This document shows positions 1-22,413 of a stretch of DNA of 28,420 nt, piece by piece; position 1 is the stretch's first letter; every line of letters starts with the position of its first letter. Below the pieces are notes generated by a model. It had not been told where the DNA came from, searched no databases, and worked only from the letters and a program-made list of their open reading frames with translations. The stretch comes from a phage. The stretch lies in NCBI GenBank assembly GCA_014816205.1, contig GCA_014816205.1_4096.1. The stretch is one strand, 5' to 3'. A program made the translations under genes and the position numbers.

Positions 1-255
1 TCATCGTCTGTTAAGTATTTCATTTTCATTTACTTTTTCCTTAATAGTGATTTTAAGATATCTAATCATACGTGCAACATATTCCTCTTGTCTATCAGTT
101 CCCAGAAGATATGGTAGTGATTGGAATAATACTTCTGCACTCCTTTCTGCTGGGGTTTGGTTTAGGTCAATTGGACGTTTATTGGTATATCTCTTGGCAC
201 GAACTAATCTCTCGACGTATTCATTATAGGTTAAGTATATCATTTCATTTTGCAT
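1..255 (-). CDS. small protein, tandem paralog family 1 (LGTNYQ-motif family)
   Basis: ORF track; ATG at 255 with AAGGA about 8 nt upstream; motif LPYLLGTDRQEEYV; start overlaps stop of next gene upstream. Confidence 0.6.
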   Translation of the reverse strand: MQNEMIYLTYNEYVERLVRAKRYTNKRPIDLNQTPAERSAEVLFQSLPYLLGTDRQEEYVARMIRYLKITIKEKVNENEILNRR

Positions 256-475
256 TTACTTTTTCCTTAATACTCATTATAAGATGTTCAATCATATTTT
301 GAACCATAAATTCTTGTTTATCAGTTCCAAGAACGTATGGTAGCTTCTGAAACAATACATTTGCAGATACTTCAGATATTGATTGATTTGGAACGAACTT
401 AAGAGTAATGTTTTTGGTTTTTAACATCTTCTCTTGAAATTCTTCATTCGTTAAGTATATCATTTCATTTTGCAT
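245..475 (-). CDS. small protein, paralog family 1
   Basis: ORF track; N-terminus MQNEMIYLT nearly identical to 1..255; motif LPYVLGTDKQEFMV. Confidence 0.6.
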   Translation of the reverse strand: MQNEMIYLTNEEFQEKMLKTKNITLKFVPNQSISEVSANVLFQKLPYVLGTDKQEFMVQNMIEHLIMSIKEKVNAK

Positions 476-691
476 TTACATTCTCTCATATATATTTTGG
501 GTTAAAAGGTCAATCCAGATTTCCACATATCGTTGTTGGTGTTGCGTCCCTAACAGTACACCCAACTTAGCTTCACACTCTAATAACAATCTGGTTTTGT
601 ATGGTAGACTTTGGAATCCTATAGTAGCATCTAATTTGGTAATTGCATAGTTGATTCGGATGAATCTTTCTTGCAATGTGATGTTGTTCAT
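476..691 (-). CDS. small protein, paralog family 1
   Basis: ORF track; motif LLGTQHQQRYV; ATGA stop/start overlap with 688.. gene. Confidence 0.6.
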   Translation of the reverse strand: MNNITLQERFIRINYAITKLDATIGFQSLPYKTRLLLECEAKLGVLLGTQHQQRYVEIWIDLLTQNIYERM

Positions 692-951
692 TTCTTAGTA
701 CACCTCAGTGGTTGGGTCATTTGATAAAAGTACAGCTTACCTTTGATTTCCAGTAGTAACTCCGCGATTAAGCGATTTACTTCTGTATCTTGATAGTTTG
801 TTCCTAAGAATACACCCATCTTTAACTCACGCATCATAATCATTTTCTTACTGTGTTGAATTTCTGGGTTGTGATAGATTGTATTACGTTTGTGCGTAAT
901 TTTTGTCATACGCTCGGTATATTCATCTTTACTTAAATTGATCATTTGCAT
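688..951 (-). CDS. small protein, paralog family 1
   Basis: ORF track 688..978 trimmed to internal ATG at 951 (track M1 is a TTG); GAGG 9 nt upstream; N-terminus MQMINLSKDEY matches family; motif FLGTNYQDTEV. Confidence 0.55.
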   Translation of the reverse strand: MQMINLSKDEYTERMTKITHKRNTIYHNPEIQHSKKMIMMRELKMGVFLGTNYQDTEVNRLIAELLLEIKGKLYFYQMTQPLRCTKK

Positions 952-980
952 GTTCATCAACCTCACATTTATTTTCAATA

Positions 981-1220
981 CTATTCTTTAGTTTGTAGAT
1001 ATAGTTTTCTTCCAATGTATCTCTTAAGTGCGATTATGTATTCATCTACATAATACTCCTGATAGTTTGTTCCTATGAATGCACCCACCTTTAACTCAAG
1101 TTTCATAATCATCTTATTTCCGTGTTTAATGACTTCTCCGTGATGGATTTCATTAAGTCCAGGTGCAATTTTCACCAGGCGTTCTTTATATTTTGCTTGA
1201 GATAATTTAATCATTTTCAT
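981..1220 (-). CDS. small protein, paralog family 1
   Basis: ORF track 981..1247 trimmed to ATG at 1220 (AAGGG upstream); N-terminus MKMIKLSQAKY; motif FIGTNYQEYYV. Confidence 0.55.
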   Translation of the reverse strand: MKMIKLSQAKYKERLVKIAPGLNEIHHGEVIKHGNKMIMKLELKVGAFIGTNYQEYYVDEYIIALKRYIGRKLYLQTKE

Positions 1221-1221
1221 G

Positions 1222-1452
1222 TTAATTACCCTTACATTTATTTTCAATACTATTCATGAGTTCTATAAGATAGTTTTCTACCTTACCTTCCTGATAGTTA
1301 GTCCCTAGGAAGTTGCACAACACGGCTTCTATGATTTTGATTTTCCTGATATCAGGCTTCAATCTTTTGTTATTGAATATTTGAATCCTTATATCTCTGG
1401 ATGCATTTAAACGTTTTTGATATTCATGGTAAGTTAAATGAATCATTTTCAT
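1222..1452 (-). CDS. small protein, paralog family 1
   Basis: ORF track; N-terminus MKMIHLTYHEY; motif FLGTNYQEGKV. Confidence 0.6.
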   Translation of the reverse strand: MKMIHLTYHEYQKRLNASRDIRIQIFNNKRLKPDIRKIKIIEAVLCNFLGTNYQEGKVENYLIELMNSIENKCKGN

Positions 1453-1667
1453 TTACGTTTAACCTCTCGCTGGAGGGCATCAATTAACATCAGTACAGCA
1501 TTCTCTTGATAGTTTGTTCCTAAGACTGAAAGCATCTTTATCTCATTTACTAAAATCAACTTCTTTGAGGGTTCAATAATGTGACTATCATAAACGGCCT
1601 TACGTGCTGGATAAGTTTTCGCCAGTATAACATAAAATTCGTCTTTACTTAAATTAATCATTTGCAT
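1449..1667 (-). CDS. small protein, paralog family 1
   Basis: ORF track; N-terminus MQMINLSKDEF; motif VLGTNYQENAV; ATGA overlap. Confidence 0.6.
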   Translation of the reverse strand: MQMINLSKDEFYVILAKTYPARKAVYDSHIIEPSKKLILVNEIKMLSVLGTNYQENAVLMLIDALQREVKRK

Positions 1668-1876
1668 TTACTTTTAACCTCTTTCTGTAGAGCGTCAATC
1701 CATAGATCTACATACATTTGTTGATAGTTTGTGCCTAAGAGTGCACCTACATAGAGTTCAGTTACTAGTGCGTGCTTAAGGTTAGCTTGGATGCTCTTAT
1801 CGCTTGATATCATTCTCCTTCTGCTTCCACATGTTTTCAGGAGTCTGATGTATTCAAAGCCTTGTAAATTTCTCAT
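1658..1876 (-). CDS. small protein, paralog family 1
   Basis: ORF track; motif LLGTNYQQMYV. Confidence 0.55.
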   Translation of the reverse strand: MRNLQGFEYIRLLKTCGSRRRMISSDKSIQANLKHALVTELYVGALLGTNYQQMYVDLWIDALQKEVKSKCK

Positions 1877-2088
1877 ATTTTGGATACCACCTTGTTACGT
1901 AAGGAACTTAATAATACGTCAGTGTAGATGTTTTGATAGTTTGTCCCTACGAATACACCCAACTTCATTTCAGCTATTATAACACATTTGTCCTCTTGTG
2001 CAATAGATTTGTTTAACACAATACTATACACTTTTGATTTGATAGTTTGTAACCTCCAATGATACTGATACTCATTAAGGATTATCAT
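1873..2088 (-). CDS. small protein, paralog family 1
   Basis: ORF track; motif FVGTNYQNIYT; ATGA overlap. Confidence 0.6.
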   Translation of the reverse strand: MIILNEYQYHWRLQTIKSKVYSIVLNKSIAQEDKCVIIAEMKLGVFVGTNYQNIYTDVLLSSLRNKVVSKI

Positions 2089-2335
2089 TCTCTTTCCTCC
2101 AGATTTCGGTTCTCATGTGTTGGCAGTGTGCATCAATATATTGCTCTATCGATCTGGCGATTGCTGTTTTATCAGTGCCTGTCATCAGTACAAGCATCTC
2201 GGCCTCACAGTGAAGTAAACGCATGATATCATAGGGTAATATTTCAGATACCGTGTCATAGTGTTTCTGTGCCAGTGTCTGCAATAGTTTACAATACATT
2301 TTGTGATTTAGTCTTTGTCGCATTGTTTCTTCCAT
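2075..2335 (-). CDS. small protein, divergent member of paralog family 1
   Basis: ORF track; degenerate motif LMTGTDKTAIARS; start uncertain (alternative ATG at 2323). Confidence 0.45.
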   Translation of the reverse strand: MEETMRQRLNHKMYCKLLQTLAQKHYDTVSEILPYDIMRLLHCEAEMLVLMTGTDKTAIARSIEQYIDAHCQHMRTEIWRKENDNP

Positions 2336-2580
2336 TCTCTTCTGGCTTGGCGGGTTTTATCTGATATTTCGTTTCTCAATGCAGAGATATATCGTAGAGT
2401 GAACAGTTCTTGATAGTTAGTCCCTATGAATTTATTAAGATATACATCAGCGTTGACGATATCAGCTTCACGGGAATTATAAAGTTTATTGTTAGTGCGA
2501 AGGGTGTTTAGAAGAGAGAAGAGGGCAGTCTGATACTCAGTGCTTGATAAAGTTTTCATATTTTTCCACAATTCGTTCAT
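2308..2580 (-). CDS. small protein, paralog family 1
   Basis: ORF track; motif FIGTNYQELFT; start uncertain (alternative ATG at 2559, MKTLSSTEY). Confidence 0.5.
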   Translation of the reverse strand: MNELWKNMKTLSSTEYQTALFSLLNTLRTNNKLYNSREADIVNADVYLNKFIGTNYQELFTLRYISALRNEISDKTRQARREWKKQCDKD

Positions 2581-2734
2581 TTAGTTTTATCTGTATAAGA
2601 TCCATTAGTTGTTCAAGATAATCGGTACAATATTTCTCTTGATATTGGGTTCCCACAAAGTACAGCAACCATAGCTCATGAACTTTAACTTTCATCTCGT
2701 TCCATGAAAGTGCATCGTCCGTCAAGTGTTTCAT
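2537..2734 (-). CDS. small protein, paralog family 1
   Basis: ORF track; motif FVGTQYQEKYC. Confidence 0.55.
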   Translation of the reverse strand: MKHLTDDALSWNEMKVKVHELWLLYFVGTQYQEKYCTDYLEQLMDLIQIKLNERIVEKYENFIKH

Positions 2735-2889
2735 TTACATTTATCCCTTATTAGATTTGTGAGTGCAACTATGTGTTCATGGATATAAAAATTTTGATGA
2801 GAAGTTCCAAGAAAGTACAGCATCCATCCCTCACTCTGCTCGACTTCTAGTTTAGTATCGAGTTGGTCAGATATGTTAATGAAAACCAT
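2731..2889 (-). CDS. small protein (52 aa), paralog family 1; absent from ORF track
   Basis: Hand translation codon by codon: MVFINISDQLDTKLEVEQSEGWMLYFLGTSHQNFYIHEHIVALTNLIRDKCK; ATG overlaps upstream stop; TGA overlaps start of 2537..2734. Confidence 0.5.
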   Translation of the reverse strand: MVFINISDQLDTKLEVEQSEGWMLYFLGTSHQNFYIHEHIVALTNLIRDKCK

Positions 2890-3113
2890 TAGTTCTTTTC
2901 CTTTCTTTCTATTTGTTTCATAAGAACATCGATATACTCACCCGCAAACCTATTCTGATACTGCGTCCCCATGAATTCCAACATCCATACTTCAGCAACC
3001 TTTTCTTCAATTTCAGTCCATTGTAAGTACATCATAGTGAAGTAAATGGTGTTCTCTTTTTTTCTGGCACTCTTAGCACGGGCCTCGTATTCAAAGTTAT
3101 TAATGATGTTCAT
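2889..3113 (-). CDS. small protein, paralog family 1
   Basis: ORF track 2889..3146 trimmed to ATG at 3113 (track M1 is a TTG); motif FMGTQYQNRFA. Confidence 0.5.
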   Translation of the reverse strand: MNIINNFEYEARAKSARKKENTIYFTMMYLQWTEIEEKVAEVWMLEFMGTQYQNRFAGEYIDVLMKQIERKEKN

Positions 3114-3327
3114 TACATTTGTCCATAATGTAATTCTTGAGTGCAACTATGTGTGCAATAACATACTCTTCCTGGAAGTTCGTCCCCAGTACAGCCAACA
3201 TGCGTACATCGGTGGTGTTTATCTTGTGTTCCAATCGAGTTAAACCTTTTATTTGTAAAAGGGTATCGTATTTGTTTAATGCATCAATGATAATTCTCAT
3301 CTTCTCAATATTACTTAAATGTTTCAT
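3100..3327 (-). CDS. small protein, paralog family 1
   Basis: ORF track; motif VLGTNFQEEYV. Confidence 0.6.
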   Translation of the reverse strand: MKHLSNIEKMRIIIDALNKYDTLLQIKGLTRLEHKINTTDVRMLAVLGTNFQEEYVIAHIVALKNYIMDKCNEHH

Positions 3328-3536
3328 AGTTTACTCTTAATGTAGTTCTGAAGTTCAATTAAGTATTTCCCTACATAATACTCCTGAAAGTCTGTATCCA
3401 AAAATGCACCCATAAGTAAATCCTTCTCCATTGCCCTTGATAAGTTAAGGTCTGCATTTGAAAGGTATATAAGTAATATTTCAGTCTGGACAGAATTAAA
3501 ACGTTTCTTATATTCTTCAGGTGTTAATATAATCAT
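3324..3536 (-). CDS. small protein, paralog family 1
   Basis: ORF track; motif FLDTDFQEYYV; ATGA overlap. Confidence 0.6.
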   Translation of the reverse strand: MIILTPEEYKKRFNSVQTEILLIYLSNADLNLSRAMEKDLLMGAFLDTDFQEYYVGKYLIELQNYIKSKL

Positions 3537-3748
3537 AATTTGCTCCTGATGTATTTCTCAAGAGATGACAAATACTTTTCCTCATAATACTCCTGATAGT
3601 CTGTTCCCAAGAATGCACCCAAAAGTATTTCATTTTCCAATACCTCGGCTAAGTTTAAATCAGACGTCTCTTCGTATATTATGAGGATTTCAAGTTGTCT
3701 GGCAGCGATGCGTTCAGTATATTGATATGAGTTTTCTATAATAATCAT
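3533..3748 (-). CDS. small protein, paralog family 1
   Basis: ORF track; motif FLGTDYQEYYE; close paralog of 3324..3536. Confidence 0.6.
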   Translation of the reverse strand: MIIIENSYQYTERIAARQLEILIIYEETSDLNLAEVLENEILLGAFLGTDYQEYYEEKYLSSLEKYIRSKL

Positions 3749-3954
3749 ATTTTACTCTTAATATCTTCTATTAAAAATCGAATCCATTCTTCAACATAAT
3801 CTTCCTGATGGTTTGTGTTCAGTACAGCCAACATGCGGATCTCTGCTCTTGCAACTTCAATTTCAGTTTTAGGCAGGTCTTTGCTGATATCCACCATTAA
3901 GTCCATGTATTTCAAGATAAGACCGTATGATTGGGTTCGTGTTATAGTTTTCAT
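3745..3954 (-). CDS. small protein, paralog family 1
   Basis: ORF track; motif VLNTNHQEDYV. Confidence 0.6.
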   Translation of the reverse strand: MKTITRTQSYGLILKYMDLMVDISKDLPKTEIEVARAEIRMLAVLNTNHQEDYVEEWIRFLIEDIKSKI

Positions 3955-4151
3955 TGTTTCCTCGTGGACAATATTTTATTTTTCAATGTATCCATATATT
4001 GCCACACCCATCTACCCTGATAGTTTGTTCCCAATGTAATCAAAAGGTATAACTCCATTCGTTCTACGTGTGTGTCTGTGTTGTAAATCTTTACGTAGTT
4101 TTTACGTAACAGTGATTGATATTCTTCTTTATTTAAAATACGCATTTTCAT
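3951..4151 (-). CDS. small protein, paralog family 1
   Basis: ORF track; N-terminus MKMRILNKEEY; motif TLGTNYQGRWV. Confidence 0.6.
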   Translation of the reverse strand: MKMRILNKEEYQSLLRKNYVKIYNTDTHVERMELYLLITLGTNYQGRWVWQYMDTLKNKILSTRKQ

Positions 4152-4345
4152 AGTTTACTCGTTATATCTTCAATTAAATACCAAATCCAATCGTTGACAT
4201 ACCTTTCCTGAAAGTTAGTTCCAATGAATAGTGCCATAATTAATTCACGCTTATAGGCAATACCACGGTCATGGGACTTATACATTATCATAGCCATGTT
4301 ATTGATAAGTCTTTCGTGGTGCTGTTCTTTAGTTAAAATACGCAT
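4148..4345 (-). CDS. small protein, paralog family 1; first gene of the array
   Basis: ORF track 4148..4375 trimmed to ATG at 4345 with AAGGGAG 5 nt upstream; motif FIGTNFQERYV. Confidence 0.6.
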   Translation of the reverse strand: MRILTKEQHHERLINNMAMIMYKSHDRGIAYKRELIMALFIGTNFQERYVNDWIWYLIEDITSKL

Positions 4346-4375
4346 AGGGACTCCCTTAAAATTAATATCAATCAT

Positions 4376-4403
4376 ATTTTATACGATTCATATAAAAAGT
4401 CAA
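4376..4403 (-). promoter_or_regulatory. sigma70-like promoter for the family-1 array
   Basis: Minus strand reads TTGACT, 16 bp, TAAAAT directly upstream of the first array gene. Confidence 0.45.
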
Positions 4404-4594
4404 TAACATTTTATTCGTAATACCCCTTTATCGAAGTCGCTAAGGTTACCCGCCCTTTAGCCCCCTACGCATTTTGCCATAGTCCAATCCCTTTTATTTC
4501 AAAAAAGTCAAGGGATTACCTATGCATTTTTTTAACGCATAATTTTAAAAACGCCTTGACTTTTTTCTGAATCAGTACTAGATCACTTTACGCA

Positions 4595-5844: not shown

Positions 5845-5930
5845 AGATACACCTATGCACCCTGTGGGCTAGTTTTTGTCTATGCGTATATAATAGCAAA
5901 GGGACTGACCGGAGTCAATCCCTTTTTTAT
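5845..5930. repeat. composite intergenic repeat, copy 1 (19-nt motif + terminator hairpin)
   Basis: tgcaccctgtgggctagt about 5857-5874; hairpin gggactgaccggagtcaatccc 5901-5922 followed by tttttt. Confidence 0.6.
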
Positions 5931-8107: not shown

Positions 8108-8197
8108 GATACACTTATGCACCCTGTGGGTCAGTGAGTTATCTCTCAATGAATATATATTAGCAAAGGGACTGACCGGAGTCAATCCCTTTTTTAA
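8108..8197. repeat. composite intergenic repeat, copy 2
   Basis: tgcaccctgtgggtcagtg 8118-8136; hairpin gggactgaccggagtcaatccc 8168-8189 plus tttttt. Confidence 0.6.
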
Positions 8198-11897: not shown

Positions 11898-12110
11898 TTA
11901 ATCTTTCAGCCAATGATCCTGAATGAATTTTTCGCCGGAACCTTGCTGCATTGTTTGTAACAGACGTTCACGATGAGCGGCGGCGAATTGCTCAGTACTA
12001 TGCGTTACGCCAGGCTGATAACGTGATACCCCATCCGGTCCGATGTATTGTACATCCCACGGTTTAGCGTTAGTATCAGACCATTTACGAACGATTAGTT
12101 GACCTTGCAT
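11898..12110 (-). CDS. hypothetical protein (70 aa)
   Basis: ORF track; GAGAGGAAAG upstream. Confidence 0.6.
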   Translation of the reverse strand: MQGQLIVRKWSDTNAKPWDVQYIGPDGVSRYQPGVTHSTEQFAAAHRERLLQTMQQGSGEKFIQDHWLKD

Positions 12111-12195
12111 TTTTCTTTCCTCTCAGTGGGGAGAATCATTTCTCCCCTTCATGTAACTTATTATACAGTACTATAATCTATTGTCAAATACTTTT
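12111..12195 (-). promoter_or_regulatory. PeSL-like promoter/hairpin cassette
   Basis: ggggagaatcatttctcccc hairpin; minus strand TTGACA...TATAAT. Confidence 0.5.
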
Positions 12196-12384
12196 TTAAA
12201 GTTTATGAATCAATTCTTTATCTAAGCGATAGCGTACATTATTAATGGTAACAGCATTATTTTTAATGCTACGCTGTACAGGTCCACCAGCAATAACAAA
12301 TGTTGCTTTATTACCCCGAACAATGATAGCACTTCCAGGATTACCGAAATCATCTTGTACTAAAATACTTGATAAGTTTTCCAT
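12196..12384 (-). CDS. hypothetical protein (62 aa)
   Basis: ORF track 12196..12390 trimmed to second ATG (12384), which has GAGGA at proper spacing. Confidence 0.55.
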   Translation of the reverse strand: MENLSSILVQDDFGNPGSAIIVRGNKATFVIAGGPVQRSIKNNAVTINNVRYRLDKELIHKL

Positions 12385-12462
12385 TTTCATTTCCTCTTAG
12401 TAGGGGAAGATGTTTCCCCTTGATGTAAGTACTATAACACTACTGAAAACTAAATGCAAGTA

Positions 12463-12819
12463 CTATGATAAAATCATGATAGGATATTCACTATCGATCA
12501 GTACCTCGAATCCGAAACCTTCGTACCATTCTTTAAGATTGAAGGCGTTATCTTCTCCTGTATCGCATTCTAAAATGATACAATCTGAATCATCGGCGGC
12601 ATCAATAAAGGCATTCATTAATTCGTTACCTTCACCATTGCCCCGACTATCAGGATCAACATAAAGAGAATCAATAAACGCTACACGGTCATAATCAAGA
12701 TCCGGTGCAATGATTCCACGTTTAACAAACCAGTACTGCAATTGTGCTACTTTGCCCTGTACTTGATAACCAGTGATCTCGCCATTGTCAGTAGTACGCG
12801 TGATATGTTGTATTCCCAT
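12463..12819 (-). CDS. GNAT-family acetyltransferase-like protein (118 aa)
   Basis: ORF track; RGNGEG resembles the acetyl-CoA-binding motif and WYEGFGFE the C-terminal GNAT motif; GAGGA upstream. Confidence 0.5.
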   Translation of the reverse strand: MGIQHITRTTDNGEITGYQVQGKVAQLQYWFVKRGIIAPDLDYDRVAFIDSLYVDPDSRGNGEGNELMNAFIDAADDSDCIILECDTGEDNAFNLKEWYEGFGFEVLIDSEYPIMILS

Positions 12820-12882
12820 GATTTCTATCCTCAGTTAAGATATAAAACATTATACACTATCTTTCAGTACTGTCAATACTTT

Positions 12883-13140
12883 TTATCTCATAGATCTATG
12901 CCAACAATTACGCGGGGGACGTTTAAAAGTACTATCATGATCCTCCTGGCAAGTTATGCAGTACTTACATCCCTTAACGGCCTGGCGTCGTTTCTCAGGG
13001 ATTATATCGCCGCAGTCGAGGCAATGTATCAGTGATTCTATTTGTGCGTTAATTTGCTTTCTAGCGTGGTTAACGGCGGCCTGAATCACTGCGTTGATCT
13101 CGTCTTGTTCGGCCCCGTCTTTCGCGTATCCTACTGCCAT
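12883..13140 (-). CDS. TraR/DksA-family C4 zinc-finger protein (85 aa)
   Basis: ORF track; CLDCGDIIPEKRR...CKYCITCQ matches the CxxC-x17-CxxC TraR/DksA zinc-finger pattern. Confidence 0.55.
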   Translation of the reverse strand: MAVGYAKDGAEQDEINAVIQAAVNHARKQINAQIESLIHCLDCGDIIPEKRRQAVKGCKYCITCQEDHDSTFKRPPRNCWHRSMR

Positions 13141-13471
13141 TATTTTAACCTCATTATAAAAATACTATAGTACTGTAATGCGACAATAATATTACTTGTT
13201 CTTACTTTTTCCAATCCACATGATACCACATATTCATCCCCATATGTGCGAAACGATACACCATGAAAATTTTTATACACTTGCACTACTAATCATAACC
13301 TTTCGTCTAACCAACTGCATAGAATTATACTACTTTACGCAAATTGATCAAGTATTGATCAGATCATTTTTTGATCAATATTATACAGTTACATTTGTGC
13401 ACCCTATGGGTTAGTGACGTTCTCGTCTTGATGTAAGTATTATGCCAGTACTGGATGATATTGTCAATAGA

Positions 13472-13669
13472 TTATTTTAATTTTTTTCTGTCATTGATTA
13501 ATGCTTTCAGTACTATACTAATGATTTGCAATGATTCATCAATGACTATAAAATTATTCTCTTTCATTAGATGATAGTTACCATTGATTGTATATTCTAA
13601 GGAGTACTGTTTACGTTTAATTTTTGATAATGTTTCTATTTGTTTTTGTACTGATTTCATGCTAATCAT
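13472..13669 (-). CDS. hypothetical protein (65 aa)
   Basis: ORF track; AGGA 9 nt upstream. Confidence 0.55.
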   Translation of the reverse strand: MISMKSVQKQIETLSKIKRKQYSLEYTINGNYHLMKENNFIVIDESLQIISIVLKALINDRKKLK

Positions 13670-13774
13670 TGTTAAACGTCCTGTAACGCATTCTAACGAG
13701 ATAAACGGTTTAGTACTGGCATTGTATAGGGTAATGAATTAAAGTCCACCAGCGTTAACCAGTGGGCTATAATC

Positions 13775-15071: not shown

Positions 15072-15160
15072 GATACACTCCTGCACCCTGTGGGCTAGTG
15101 AGCTATCTCTCAATGAATATATAATAGCAAAATGGCTGACCGAAGTCAACCACTTTTTTC
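15072..15160. repeat. composite intergenic repeat, copy 4 (variant hairpin)
   Basis: tgcaccctgtgggctagtg 15082-15100; hairpin tggctgaccgaagtcaacca 15133-15152 plus tttttt; arm changes preserve pairing relative to other copies. Confidence 0.55.
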
Positions 15161-19738: not shown

Positions 19739-19767
19739 TTGACAACTGCATCCAGTACTGGCATAAT
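19739..19767 (+). promoter_or_regulatory. plus-strand sigma70-like promoter
   Basis: ttgaca 19739-19744, 17-bp spacer, cataat 19762-19767; no plus-strand ORF follows. Confidence 0.45.
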
Positions 19768-19773
19768 TACTAC

Positions 19774-19880
19774 ATAAAGACGATACAGTCACTAACCCAC
19801 AGGGTGCATAGATCCGTCTATTAAATGATTCAGTACTGAAAAAGTAACGGGGAGTTATTATCTCCCCGCGTTGTTATTTG
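19774..19880 (+). ncRNA. candidate small non-coding RNA (about 100 nt)
   Basis: Runs from the 19739 promoter to hairpin cggggagttattatctccccg (19848-19868) plus U-rich tail; contains the 19-nt motif; only a 4-codon ORF. Confidence 0.3.
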
Positions 19881-22230: not shown

Positions 22231-22259
22231 TTGACAGCACTATCCAGTACTGGTATAAT
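22231..22259 (+). promoter_or_regulatory. plus-strand sigma70-like promoter
   Basis: ttgaca 22231-22236, 17-bp spacer, tataat 22254-22259; two copies of the 19-nt motif downstream in opposite orientation. Confidence 0.45.
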
Positions 22260-22382
22260 ATACCCCATGACAACAGCTAACCCACCGGGTGCACAATTGT
22301 AACTGTACTAAACTACTTTTTCTATAGATACACTCCCGCACCCTATGGGCTACGGCTTATCTGCCAATGAATACATTATGCC

Positions 22383-22413
22383 AGTATTGACAAAATAAGT
22401 CAATACTGGCAAT
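22383..22413. other. perfect 12-bp-stem hairpin
   Basis: gccagtattgac aaaataa gtcaatactggc; stem contains TTGACT, which with CATAAT 17 bp away forms a minus-strand promoter-like site. Confidence 0.5.

Follow-up and report, generated by a model that had tools for sequence, protein, structure and literature searches.

A 48-codon gene with operator-like GATC dyads is one of three separately inherited early-gene cassettes in an Asteriusvirus jumbo coliphage

The window analysed in this work is the whole of contig GCA_014816205.1_4096.1 (28,420 nt), and the locus of interest comprises four small genes, all on the minus strand: a 65-aa gene (13472..13669, phrog_36844), a 48-codon open reading frame (ORF) designated ORF48 (13140..13286), a gene for a zinc-finger protein of the DksA/TraR family (12883..13140) and a gene for a GNAT acetyltransferase (12463..12819). 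An earlier note had regarded the last two as a single module modifying the host RNA polymerase, with the segment 13141-13471 as its multi-promoter leader. We propose instead that the GNAT gene, the zinc-finger gene and ORF48 represent three independent early-gene cassettes, the third of which includes also a promoter (P1), a two-hairpin element, two GATC-containing dyads (O1 and O2) and a second promoter (P2), and that its expression is controlled through the dyads as operators; we estimate the probability of this reading, the operator-control proposal included, at about 0.6. Comparison of sequences establishes the identity of the genes, selection on ORF48, independent gain and loss of the cassettes, and conservation of the dyads at the ORF48 promoter. 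On the same grounds the window is assigned to an Asteriusvirus (PBECO4/121Q-type jumbo coliphage): 1.4 kb around the locus is 99.4% identical to the Escherichia phage vB_EcoM_CRJP21, and a search with 1401 nt matched 37 records from jumbo phages that belong to the genus Asteriusvirus (PBECO4/121Q group).

ORF48 starts with a GTG codon, preceded at a distance of ~12 nt by a Shine-Dalgarno-like GAAAGG (13299..13304, minus strand, read from the sequence), and its TAA stop codon overlaps the ATG of the zinc-finger gene (TAATG), i.e. the two are stop-start coupled. It is annotated in 121Q (gp293) and PBECO4 (gp253) and belongs to phrog_38664, which also matches the Erwinia homologue with an E-value of 5.8e-7. 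Compared with the 121Q type, the frame, length and residue pattern are kept despite synonymous divergence: codons 2-30 are near synonymous saturation (pS 0.70), and the ratio of nonsynonymous to synonymous substitution rates (dN/dS) is 0.25 overall. By this comparison ORF48 is a real gene under purifying selection. Its homologues (47-74 aa, ~15 clusters at 50% identity) are found in Erwinia phage Hallingskeid, Pectobacterium phage CBB and many metagenomic contigs; a profile search of IMG/VR with the ORF48 alignment retrieved 121Q as the sole find. The CBB homologue (49 aa, locus L130, 1292-1441) is unannotated and ATGA-coupled to gp043, and its start codon is located within a perfect 10-bp inverted repeat ACTCGCATAG...CTATGCGAGT, which would sequester it. 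The segment 13141-13471 does carry selected regulatory sequence, as had been supposed, but it is not an empty leader of the TraR-like gene, since it contains ORF48. The statement that it harbours no ORF of at least 60 aa also fails: there is a 72-aa plus-strand ORF with a TTG start (13196-13414), which is not a gene, as it is interrupted by stops in the 121Q-type relatives.

The ORF48 cassette is inherited as a unit. In ph0011, phAPEC6 and UE-S1 a whole segment of 332 bp (13149-13480) is missing, while the TraR-like gene is retained. Flanking the cassette is a 10-bp direct repeat, ATTATTTTAA (on the minus strand TTAAAATAAT), whose right copy (13139..13148) coincides with the stop/start junction and whose left copy (13471..13480) is positioned at the stop of the upstream 65-aa gene; in the ph0011-type phages the latter gene is stop-start coupled straight to the zinc-finger gene. 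The leader is complete in 27 phage records, and nine more Escherichia jumbo-phage records, among them ph0011, phAPEC6 and UE-S1, match only its P1-like end. In the Erwinia-type phages the cassette is syntenic, upstream of a homologue of the window gene 11898-12110, which argues that it is ancestral and was lost in ph0011; the genes downstream of it in these loci are neither TraR nor GNAT. In addition, a mosaic patch (13191-13350) covering the 5' two-thirds of ORF48, P2 and the dyads shows ~60% identity to the 121Q/vB_Ec-M-J type, while its flanks are ~90-99% identical among Asteriusviruses; the sequence pattern indicates recombinational replacement from a divergent lineage.

On the minus strand the elements of the cassette follow in the order P1, hairpin 1, core CTAACCCATAGGGTGC, O1, O2, P2, GAAAGG and GTG, and this order is the same upstream of the ORF48 homologue in 16 loci. 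P1 (13439..13467, TTGACA-17-CATAAT with a TG extension, 11/12 positions) is kept in all Asteriusvirus copies and carries the early-promoter motif CCAGTACTGG; the 19-nt motif reported previously from this segment is indeed present, and corresponds to the repeated early-promoter consensus TTGACA-N8-9-AGTACTG(G)-TATAAT. P2, the ORF48 promoter (13324..13351, TTGATC-16-TATAAT, 10/12), was identified in a promoter scan and has an equivalent in all orthologous loci. Its -35 hexamer is at the same time half of the dyad O2 (13344..13361, TGATCA-ATACT-TGATCAA in the minus reading), next to which lies O1 (13362..13378, TTGATCA-AAAAA-TGATC in the minus reading); in each dyad the GATC centres are 11 bp apart. 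The three TTGATCA copies noticed earlier are found at 13344, 13355 and 13371 and do contain GATC, but the number of GATC sites is four, not three (13346, 13357, 13362 and 13373, spacing 11/5/11, overlapping the -35 of P2). The two GATC-N7-GATC dyads are the only ones in the 28-kb window (0.19 expected), while the word TTGATCA is only mildly enriched in it (10 vs 5.4), the clustering being the striking part. As for the other promoter-like sites that had been suggested, a third minus-strand site (13214-13186, 9/12) exists along with P1 and P2, but matches of 9/12 are at chance level, the scan having reported 24 sites vs 14.3 +/- 4 in shuffles; the plus-strand sites (13355-13384 and 13414-13443, 9/12 each) belong to this category and are not conserved.

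The dyads were compared in 16 orthologous loci, in the ~105 nt that separate the core from the start codon, for ORF48 proteins that are 19-37% identical to the one studied here. These segments contain 57 GATC sites vs 4.3 expected, with the half-site consensus ATTGATCAA (T at -1 in 53/57 and A at +1 in 50/57), and GATC-N7-GATC dyads occur in 13 of the 16. Their position depends on the lineage: over the -35 in the window, just past the -10 in 121Q, and straddling the -10 as TTGATCAATAATTGATC in the Erwinia clade; despite this shift they touch the core promoter in every lineage. Retention of the word during turnover of its position strongly supports a function of the dyads. ORF48 is the only gene constantly linked to them. 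Because the conservation reaches beyond GATC, a sequence-specific protein is a likelier ligand than SeqA alone, although Dam methylation, by the host enzyme or by a phage N6-adenine methylase (reported for phAPEC6 and Sharanji), may modulate the binding, judging from the half-sites. Consensus sites of Fur and IHF were considered by eye as the identity of the dyads and rejected, too few positions matching.

Downstream of P1, the two-hairpin element (13399..13427, minus strand) consists of hairpin 1, GACG-AGAA-CGTC (13427-13416), and the core (13414-13399), which folds into hairpin 2, ACCC-AUA-GGGU. Six times in the window a strong promoter precedes the core, CTA(A/G)CCCAYMGGGTGC (minus strand 13399, 15083, 8119 and 5857; plus strand 19792 and 22277), and the element is found also in Klebsiella, Erwinia and metagenomic Rak2-like phages. 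Hairpin 2 is invariant, while hairpin 1 covaries (GACG/CGTC, TGAG/CTCA, TGGC/GCTA, GCC/GGC, GGAG/CTCC and others) and was found by an anchored scan in 17 of 27 distinct copies vs 5.7 +/- 1.9 in shuffles. This retention of pairing points to a constraint at the RNA level; RNAalifold run on the 27 copies recovered hairpin 2 only, as MAFFT does not register hairpin 1. Against Rfam 15 the window had no hit that reached the gathering threshold, and 13100-13520 had none at E <= 1; the whole P1-to-ORF48 leader folded as RNA gave z = -2.2 with no stable consensus. A scan of viral contigs with CTAACCCANNGGGTGC was too promiscuous, most of its 120 hits being due to chance, and only the promoter-preceded ones were kept.

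The copies of the element differ in what follows them. On the minus strand, those at 15083-15098, 8119-8134 and 5857-5872 are part of a unit that comprises promoter A (TTGACT-17-TATTAT, with the -35 in a terminator-like stem-loop), the element, AGTACT palindromes, promoter B and a gene. The two plus-strand copies (a strong promoter and the CTAACCCAYMGGGTGC element; 19739-19870 and 22231-22400) are antisense to the direction of the genes: the former has an intrinsic terminator at its end and resembles a small RNA of ~90-100 nt, and behind the latter, possibly a small RNA too, come a partial copy of the element in inverted orientation and a perfect palindrome of 12 bp. Terminated units of this kind are present in loci L011, L017 and L034; other copies, including that of the locus described here, continue to a second promoter and a gene. 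The tandem-promoter arrangement seems to be one of the regular modules of which this early region is made. A role in antitermination, similar to nut or put sites, was considered and not adopted, as several copies directly precede a terminator. Six nucleotides past a Shine-Dalgarno-like AGGGTG in the element we noticed a mini-ORF, ATG TAA (13387-13392, minus strand); it is probably not a gene, for the ATG/GTG frames of 7-20 codons in other copies are not conserved.

The GNAT cassette is represented by a minimal acetyltransferase of 118 aa (phrog_1249), whose previous recognition from the RGNGEG and WYEGFGFE motifs is borne out by the Pfam search: Acetyltransf_1 (PF00583) matches with an E-value of 4.1e-9 (37.2 bits, cut-off 20.7), and two other GNAT models, PF13508 and PF13673, also score above their cut-offs. 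The match spans residues 42-104, leaving 41 residues before it, corresponds to the C-terminal half of the model and includes motif A, R59-G-N-G-E-G64. Sequence matches to GNATs in the PDB are weak, and even for the nearest named acetyltransferase families (RimI, ArsN1, AAC(6')) the protein is far below every cut-off. The gene has its own sigma-70 promoter found in the promoter scan (12849..12876, minus strand, TTGACA-16-TATAAT, 12/12). In PBECO4, the alignment shows that exactly this cassette is missing and the zinc-finger gene is kept, the -35 of one promoter being joined to the -10 of the next; conversely, the unrelated Shigella phage SF1-1 (146 kb) carries a copy that is 95.8% identical in protein and ~95% in DNA (locus L149, 1120-1660), the identity spanning from the -10 hexamer to the stop, with like promoters on both sides. 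The alignment gap in PBECO4 and the SF1-1 copy delimit the indel unit, approximately, to 12447..12864 (minus strand). The comparison identifies the GNAT cassette as a mobile, promoter-bounded unit that is gained and lost independently of the zinc-finger gene. As SF1-1 also uses promoters of the AAAAAGTACTTGCA...TATAAT type, the ~95% identical cassette with like promoters argues that the early-promoter architecture is common to different phage families, which would permit exchange of cassettes between them.

The zinc-finger cassette encodes an 85-aa protein (phrog_54), for which the predicted TraR/DksA-type C4 finger was confirmed. It matches zf-dskA_traR (PF01258) with 41.3 bits (cut-off 24.9, E-value 1.5e-10), and the cysteines C40-x2-C43-x17-C61-x2-C64 align with C37, C40, C58 and C61 of TraR with identical spacing (CxxC-x17-CxxC). 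The closest solved relative is YbiI (PDB 2KGO; E-value 1.7e-12 over 74 residues), TraR being matched with an E-value of 1.2e-5 over ~50 residues. The best-scoring model is the NCBIfam YbiI equivalog PRK11019 (81.4 bits), yet the score is below the cut-off of 96, and both TraR models score lower and also below their cut-offs (TIGR02419, 52.5 vs 59.7 bits; PRK13715, 30.1 vs 108). According to these alignments the protein is YbiI-like rather than TraR-like, without being a YbiI equivalog, and, judging from its family, it probably binds RNA polymerase's secondary channel like its TraR and YbiI relatives. T4-like and jumbo phages often encode relatives that have this N-terminus and C-terminal tail (646 records). 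The gene has its own GAGG Shine-Dalgarno sequence, within the 3' end of ORF48, and lacks a strong promoter of its own; via the TAATG overlap it is carried along by whatever gene lies upstream. The weak site within ORF48 mentioned above (13186..13214, minus strand, TTGGAA-17-TATTAT), which has the equivalent TTGAAT-17-TATTAT in the 121Q type, could feed the zinc-finger gene independently, as far as its sequence tells, but its conservation may just reflect the conserved Gly-Leu and Ile-Ile codons.

The nature of the protein that would bind the dyads was approached through the predicted structure of ORF48, which comprises four strands and a C-terminal helix, resembles the AP2 fold and can be superposed on solved AP2 domains, with a moderate fold match. 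The AP2/ERF domain is a beta-sheet with a C-terminal helix, occurs also in phage HNH endonucleases and resembles the arm-binding domains of integrases. We propose that O1 and O2 are operators, that a dimer of dimers bound to them would occlude the -35 of P2 and block the read-through from P1, and that their occupancy would determine how much ORF48 is made, or when, and via translational coupling would do likewise for the zinc-finger protein. Provided that the dyads are operators, ORF48 itself, as a minimal AP2-like autorepressor, is our preferred candidate for the binder, because the simplest source of a regulator that has one target in 28 kb is the target gene itself; on the model this assignment has somewhat less than an even chance of being correct. 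A wider generalization is speculative and, in our opinion, rather unlikely to hold in full: ORF48 would found an undescribed family of ~48-60-aa AP2-fold autoregulators in Rak2-like jumbo phages, with operators TGATCA-N5-TGATCA; ORF48 and the coupled secondary-channel protein would be gated by repressor occupancy and by the Dam/replication state of the incoming terminal repeat; and the two-hairpin element would constitute a new class of cis-acting or small RNA.

Several observations weigh against the cassette and operator reading. Foldseek searches with ORF48 found nothing in the PDB, profile searches (Pfam, NCBIfam, PDB) were empty, with no Pfam hit in 24 family members, and hhalign of ORF48 vs AP2 domains gave a probability of 3%. 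The GTG start and the distant Shine-Dalgarno sequence suggest that expression of ORF48 may be low. The 16 loci are related, hence the excess of GATC is partly inherited and does not represent 16 independent events, and the CBB homologue has no upstream TGATCA dyads, which means that the pairing of gene and dyads is not universal. On the side of the zinc-finger protein, the scores below the NCBIfam cut-offs of both the TraR and the YbiI models are accompanied by the lack of DxxDxA in any register of the N-terminus (M-A-V-G-Y-A-K-D8-G-A-E11-Q-D13); this motif reaches the active site of RNA polymerase and is critical in TraR and lambda Orf73 (PMC9239242; PMC2613031). Phage TraR homologues reprogram host transcription (PMC9239242), and over-expressed YbiI was reported to rescue dksA-null auxotrophy, with data not shown in that paper (PMC2613031), but for a protein without DxxDxA inhibition of rRNA promoters is to be conjectured rather than taken as given.

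With regard to the locus as a whole, the interpretation of the GNAT and TraR-like genes as one host-RNA-polymerase-modifying module, with 13141-13471 as its multi-promoter leader, draws on their adjacency and common orientation in 19/37 related records, their location in the early region and the promoter-like sites upstream. It is largely refuted by the comparative data, and we consider it very improbable: the GNAT gene possesses its own 12/12 promoter, and its gains and losses are independent; ORF48 is encoded within the leader, whose regulatory features, the dyads and both promoters, stay with ORF48 where neither TraR nor GNAT adjoins; the ph0011-type phages retain the TraR-like gene without the leader; and in three distant phages inspected (two T4-like and one Erwinia jumbo phage) no GNAT gene was found beside the TraR-like gene. 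Still more improbable is that the GATC- and AT-rich cluster serves as a replication origin or a packaging-type site. Clustered TGATCA in AT-rich DNA does resemble pac of bacteriophage P1, which carries clustered TGATCA/G hexamers, and GATC clusters of the oriC type, and the region lies in the terminal repeat, but in every lineage the dyads stay at a -35/-10 pair with a downstream Shine-Dalgarno sequence and start codon, between 1 and 5 sites are present, the ph0011-type phages do without the entire unit and no turn of the GC skew was found at the locus.

Two further alternatives concern the ligand of the dyads. They could form a switch based on Dam methylation, its reader being RNA polymerase itself or a host protein such as SeqA, such that the activity of P2 follows the methylation state and ties expression to replication. 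SeqA prefers GATC pairs one helical turn apart, and here GATC is present in every half-site, with the pairs separated by 11 bp, i.e. one helical turn; in all loci of the Erwinia clade one GATC lies at -16 to -13, beside the -10 hexamer; the hosts belong to the Enterobacterales and are Dam-positive, the genomes of Asteriusviruses encode an N6-adenine methyltransferase, and GATC is not avoided in the window (92 vs 77 expected). We nevertheless regard such a switch as unlikely: neither SeqA nor Dam requires conservation of the full half-site, one orthologue (L133/L134) keeps TTAATCA with GATC lost, which suggests that the wider word matters, and the dyads occur at one promoter only in 28 kb. Alternatively, the dyads may be operators for another phage or host DNA-binding protein, ORF48 having an unrelated role, e.g. 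that of a small protein for host takeover. Selection on the dyads is clear whoever binds them, the AP2 fold match of ORF48 is moderate and devoid of sequence support, and the CBB homologue lacks dyads, all of which agrees with a different binder. We regard this too as unlikely, since ORF48 alone accompanies the dyads constantly and the argument from a single target in 28 kb again favors the product of the target itself. The preferred reading thus remains that of three cassettes, with ORF48 as the candidate ligand of its own operators.

The surroundings of the locus have several features of their own. In vB_Ec-M-J it is located inside an annotated 21.5-kb direct terminal repeat, and the region is present twice in those records that include both repeats; in fEgEco12 a direct terminal repeat of ~21 kb was confirmed by restriction mapping (PMC13070987). 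Most genes have their own near-consensus sigma-70 copy of the early promoter, whose consensus continues after TATAAT with A.TTACATCAAG; a pattern scan of the window found 19 minus-strand sites, 17 of them with TTGACA as the -35, and 2 plus-strand sites. RpoD-type early promoters in the terminal repeats of Rak2-like phages were noted earlier (PMC5259590). A scan for tRNA and tmRNA genes found none.

The AGTACT palindrome occurs 156 times in 4574-28420 (9.4 +/- 3.1 expected), i.e. about once per 150 bp, and is absent from 1-4573. It is placed in promoter spacers, upstream of -35 hexamers and after the P1-proximal conserved element, but also within coding sequences in all three codon phases (35/23/14), including the GNAT gene, the zinc-finger gene and ORF48. 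A 10-30-fold excess was found also in early regions of Erwinia, Klebsiella, Pectobacterium and metagenomic Rak2-like phages, and not in T4-like loci; nothing relevant on AGTACT or TTGATCAA in phages came up in the literature. Chi sites (GCTGGTGG) are likewise in excess, 11 vs 0.31 expected in the window, 10 of them co-oriented on the coding strand (minus strand 5803, 6025, 7602, 9017, 11365, 12284, 13746, 18143, 24057 and 24897; plus strand 24909); the copy at 13746 sits in a terminator-like hairpin (13746-13765), and Chi occurs also in early intergenic DNA of relatives. This excess suggests that the terminal repeat is protected against RecBCD. Many early 5' untranslated regions (e.g. 12100-12450) have a common sequence ACTTACATCAAG, followed by a GC-rich hairpin (GGGGAAAC..TTCCCC) directly before the Shine-Dalgarno sequence, which from its position may be a stabilising or processing element. 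The segment 1-4400 contrasts sharply with the cassette-style region that begins at ~4574: it is a block of ~20 minus-strand genes of 52-96 aa that are tightly packed and for the most part overlap, without AGTACT and with a lower G+C content (~0.33-0.37).

The GNAT and zinc-finger genes are ordinary and already annotated in GenBank relatives. What is new is that the supposed leader turns out to be a conserved, separately inherited control cassette, with a 48-aa gene, operator-like GATC dyads retained across genera and an unclassified transcribed element. It offers an entry point to the control of the first-expressed genes in Rak2-like jumbo phages, for which we found no transcription data. The movement of early genes such as GNAT as promoter-bounded cassettes between unrelated coliphages calls for caution in inferring function from the neighborhood in early regions.

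Among known systems, the zinc-finger protein shares with E. coli YbiI, F-plasmid TraR and lambda Orf73 the spacing of the C4 finger, small size and a single N-terminal helix, and its gene, like those of phage TraR homologues, is phage-encoded among early genes. It differs in a short N-terminal extension, in D-G-A-E-Q-D replacing the DxxDxA of TraR and Orf73, in two extra cysteines (C58 and C79) and in the conserved C-terminal tail RNCWHRSMR, which is common to the copies from T4-like phages. Unlike AP2/ERF domains, ORF48 has four predicted strands rather than three, is a stand-alone protein of 48 aa and shows no similarity at the profile level. The dyads are reminiscent of the operators of the P22 Arc/Mnt type in having two palindromic half-sites, with centres 11 bp apart, over the core promoter of the next gene; however, the predicted fold of ORF48 is not ribbon-helix-helix, the half-sites contain the Dam target GATC and the upstream P1 reads through the operators. 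With the Dam/SeqA-dependent promoters, such as IS10 pIN, they share GATC in or near the -35/-10 hexamers and pairs one helical turn apart, but here the conservation covers a 9-10-bp palindrome ATTGATCAAT.

The closest parallel to the cassette organization is provided by PeSLs, composite motifs of an early promoter and a stem-loop through which modules are shuffled in T4-type phages (PMC2839356, PMC4122927). As in that system, small early genes are flanked by near-identical sigma-70 promoters, junctions of indels between close relatives fall inside repeated early promoters (the GNAT deletion in PBECO4), the GNAT cassette lies between like promoters in the unrelated SF1-1, and the -35 of relatives is embedded in a terminator-like stem-loop GGGGTTGACTTCGGTTAGCCCC. 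The combination of promoter and stem-loop is clear in relatives and in other copies (TTGACTtcggtcagcc...), and not at P1 of this locus. In contrast to PeSLs, the repeated unit adds the AGTACT palindrome and often the transcribed two-hairpin element between tandem promoters, and the 332-bp ORF48 cassette is bounded not by promoters but by the 10-bp stop/start repeat.

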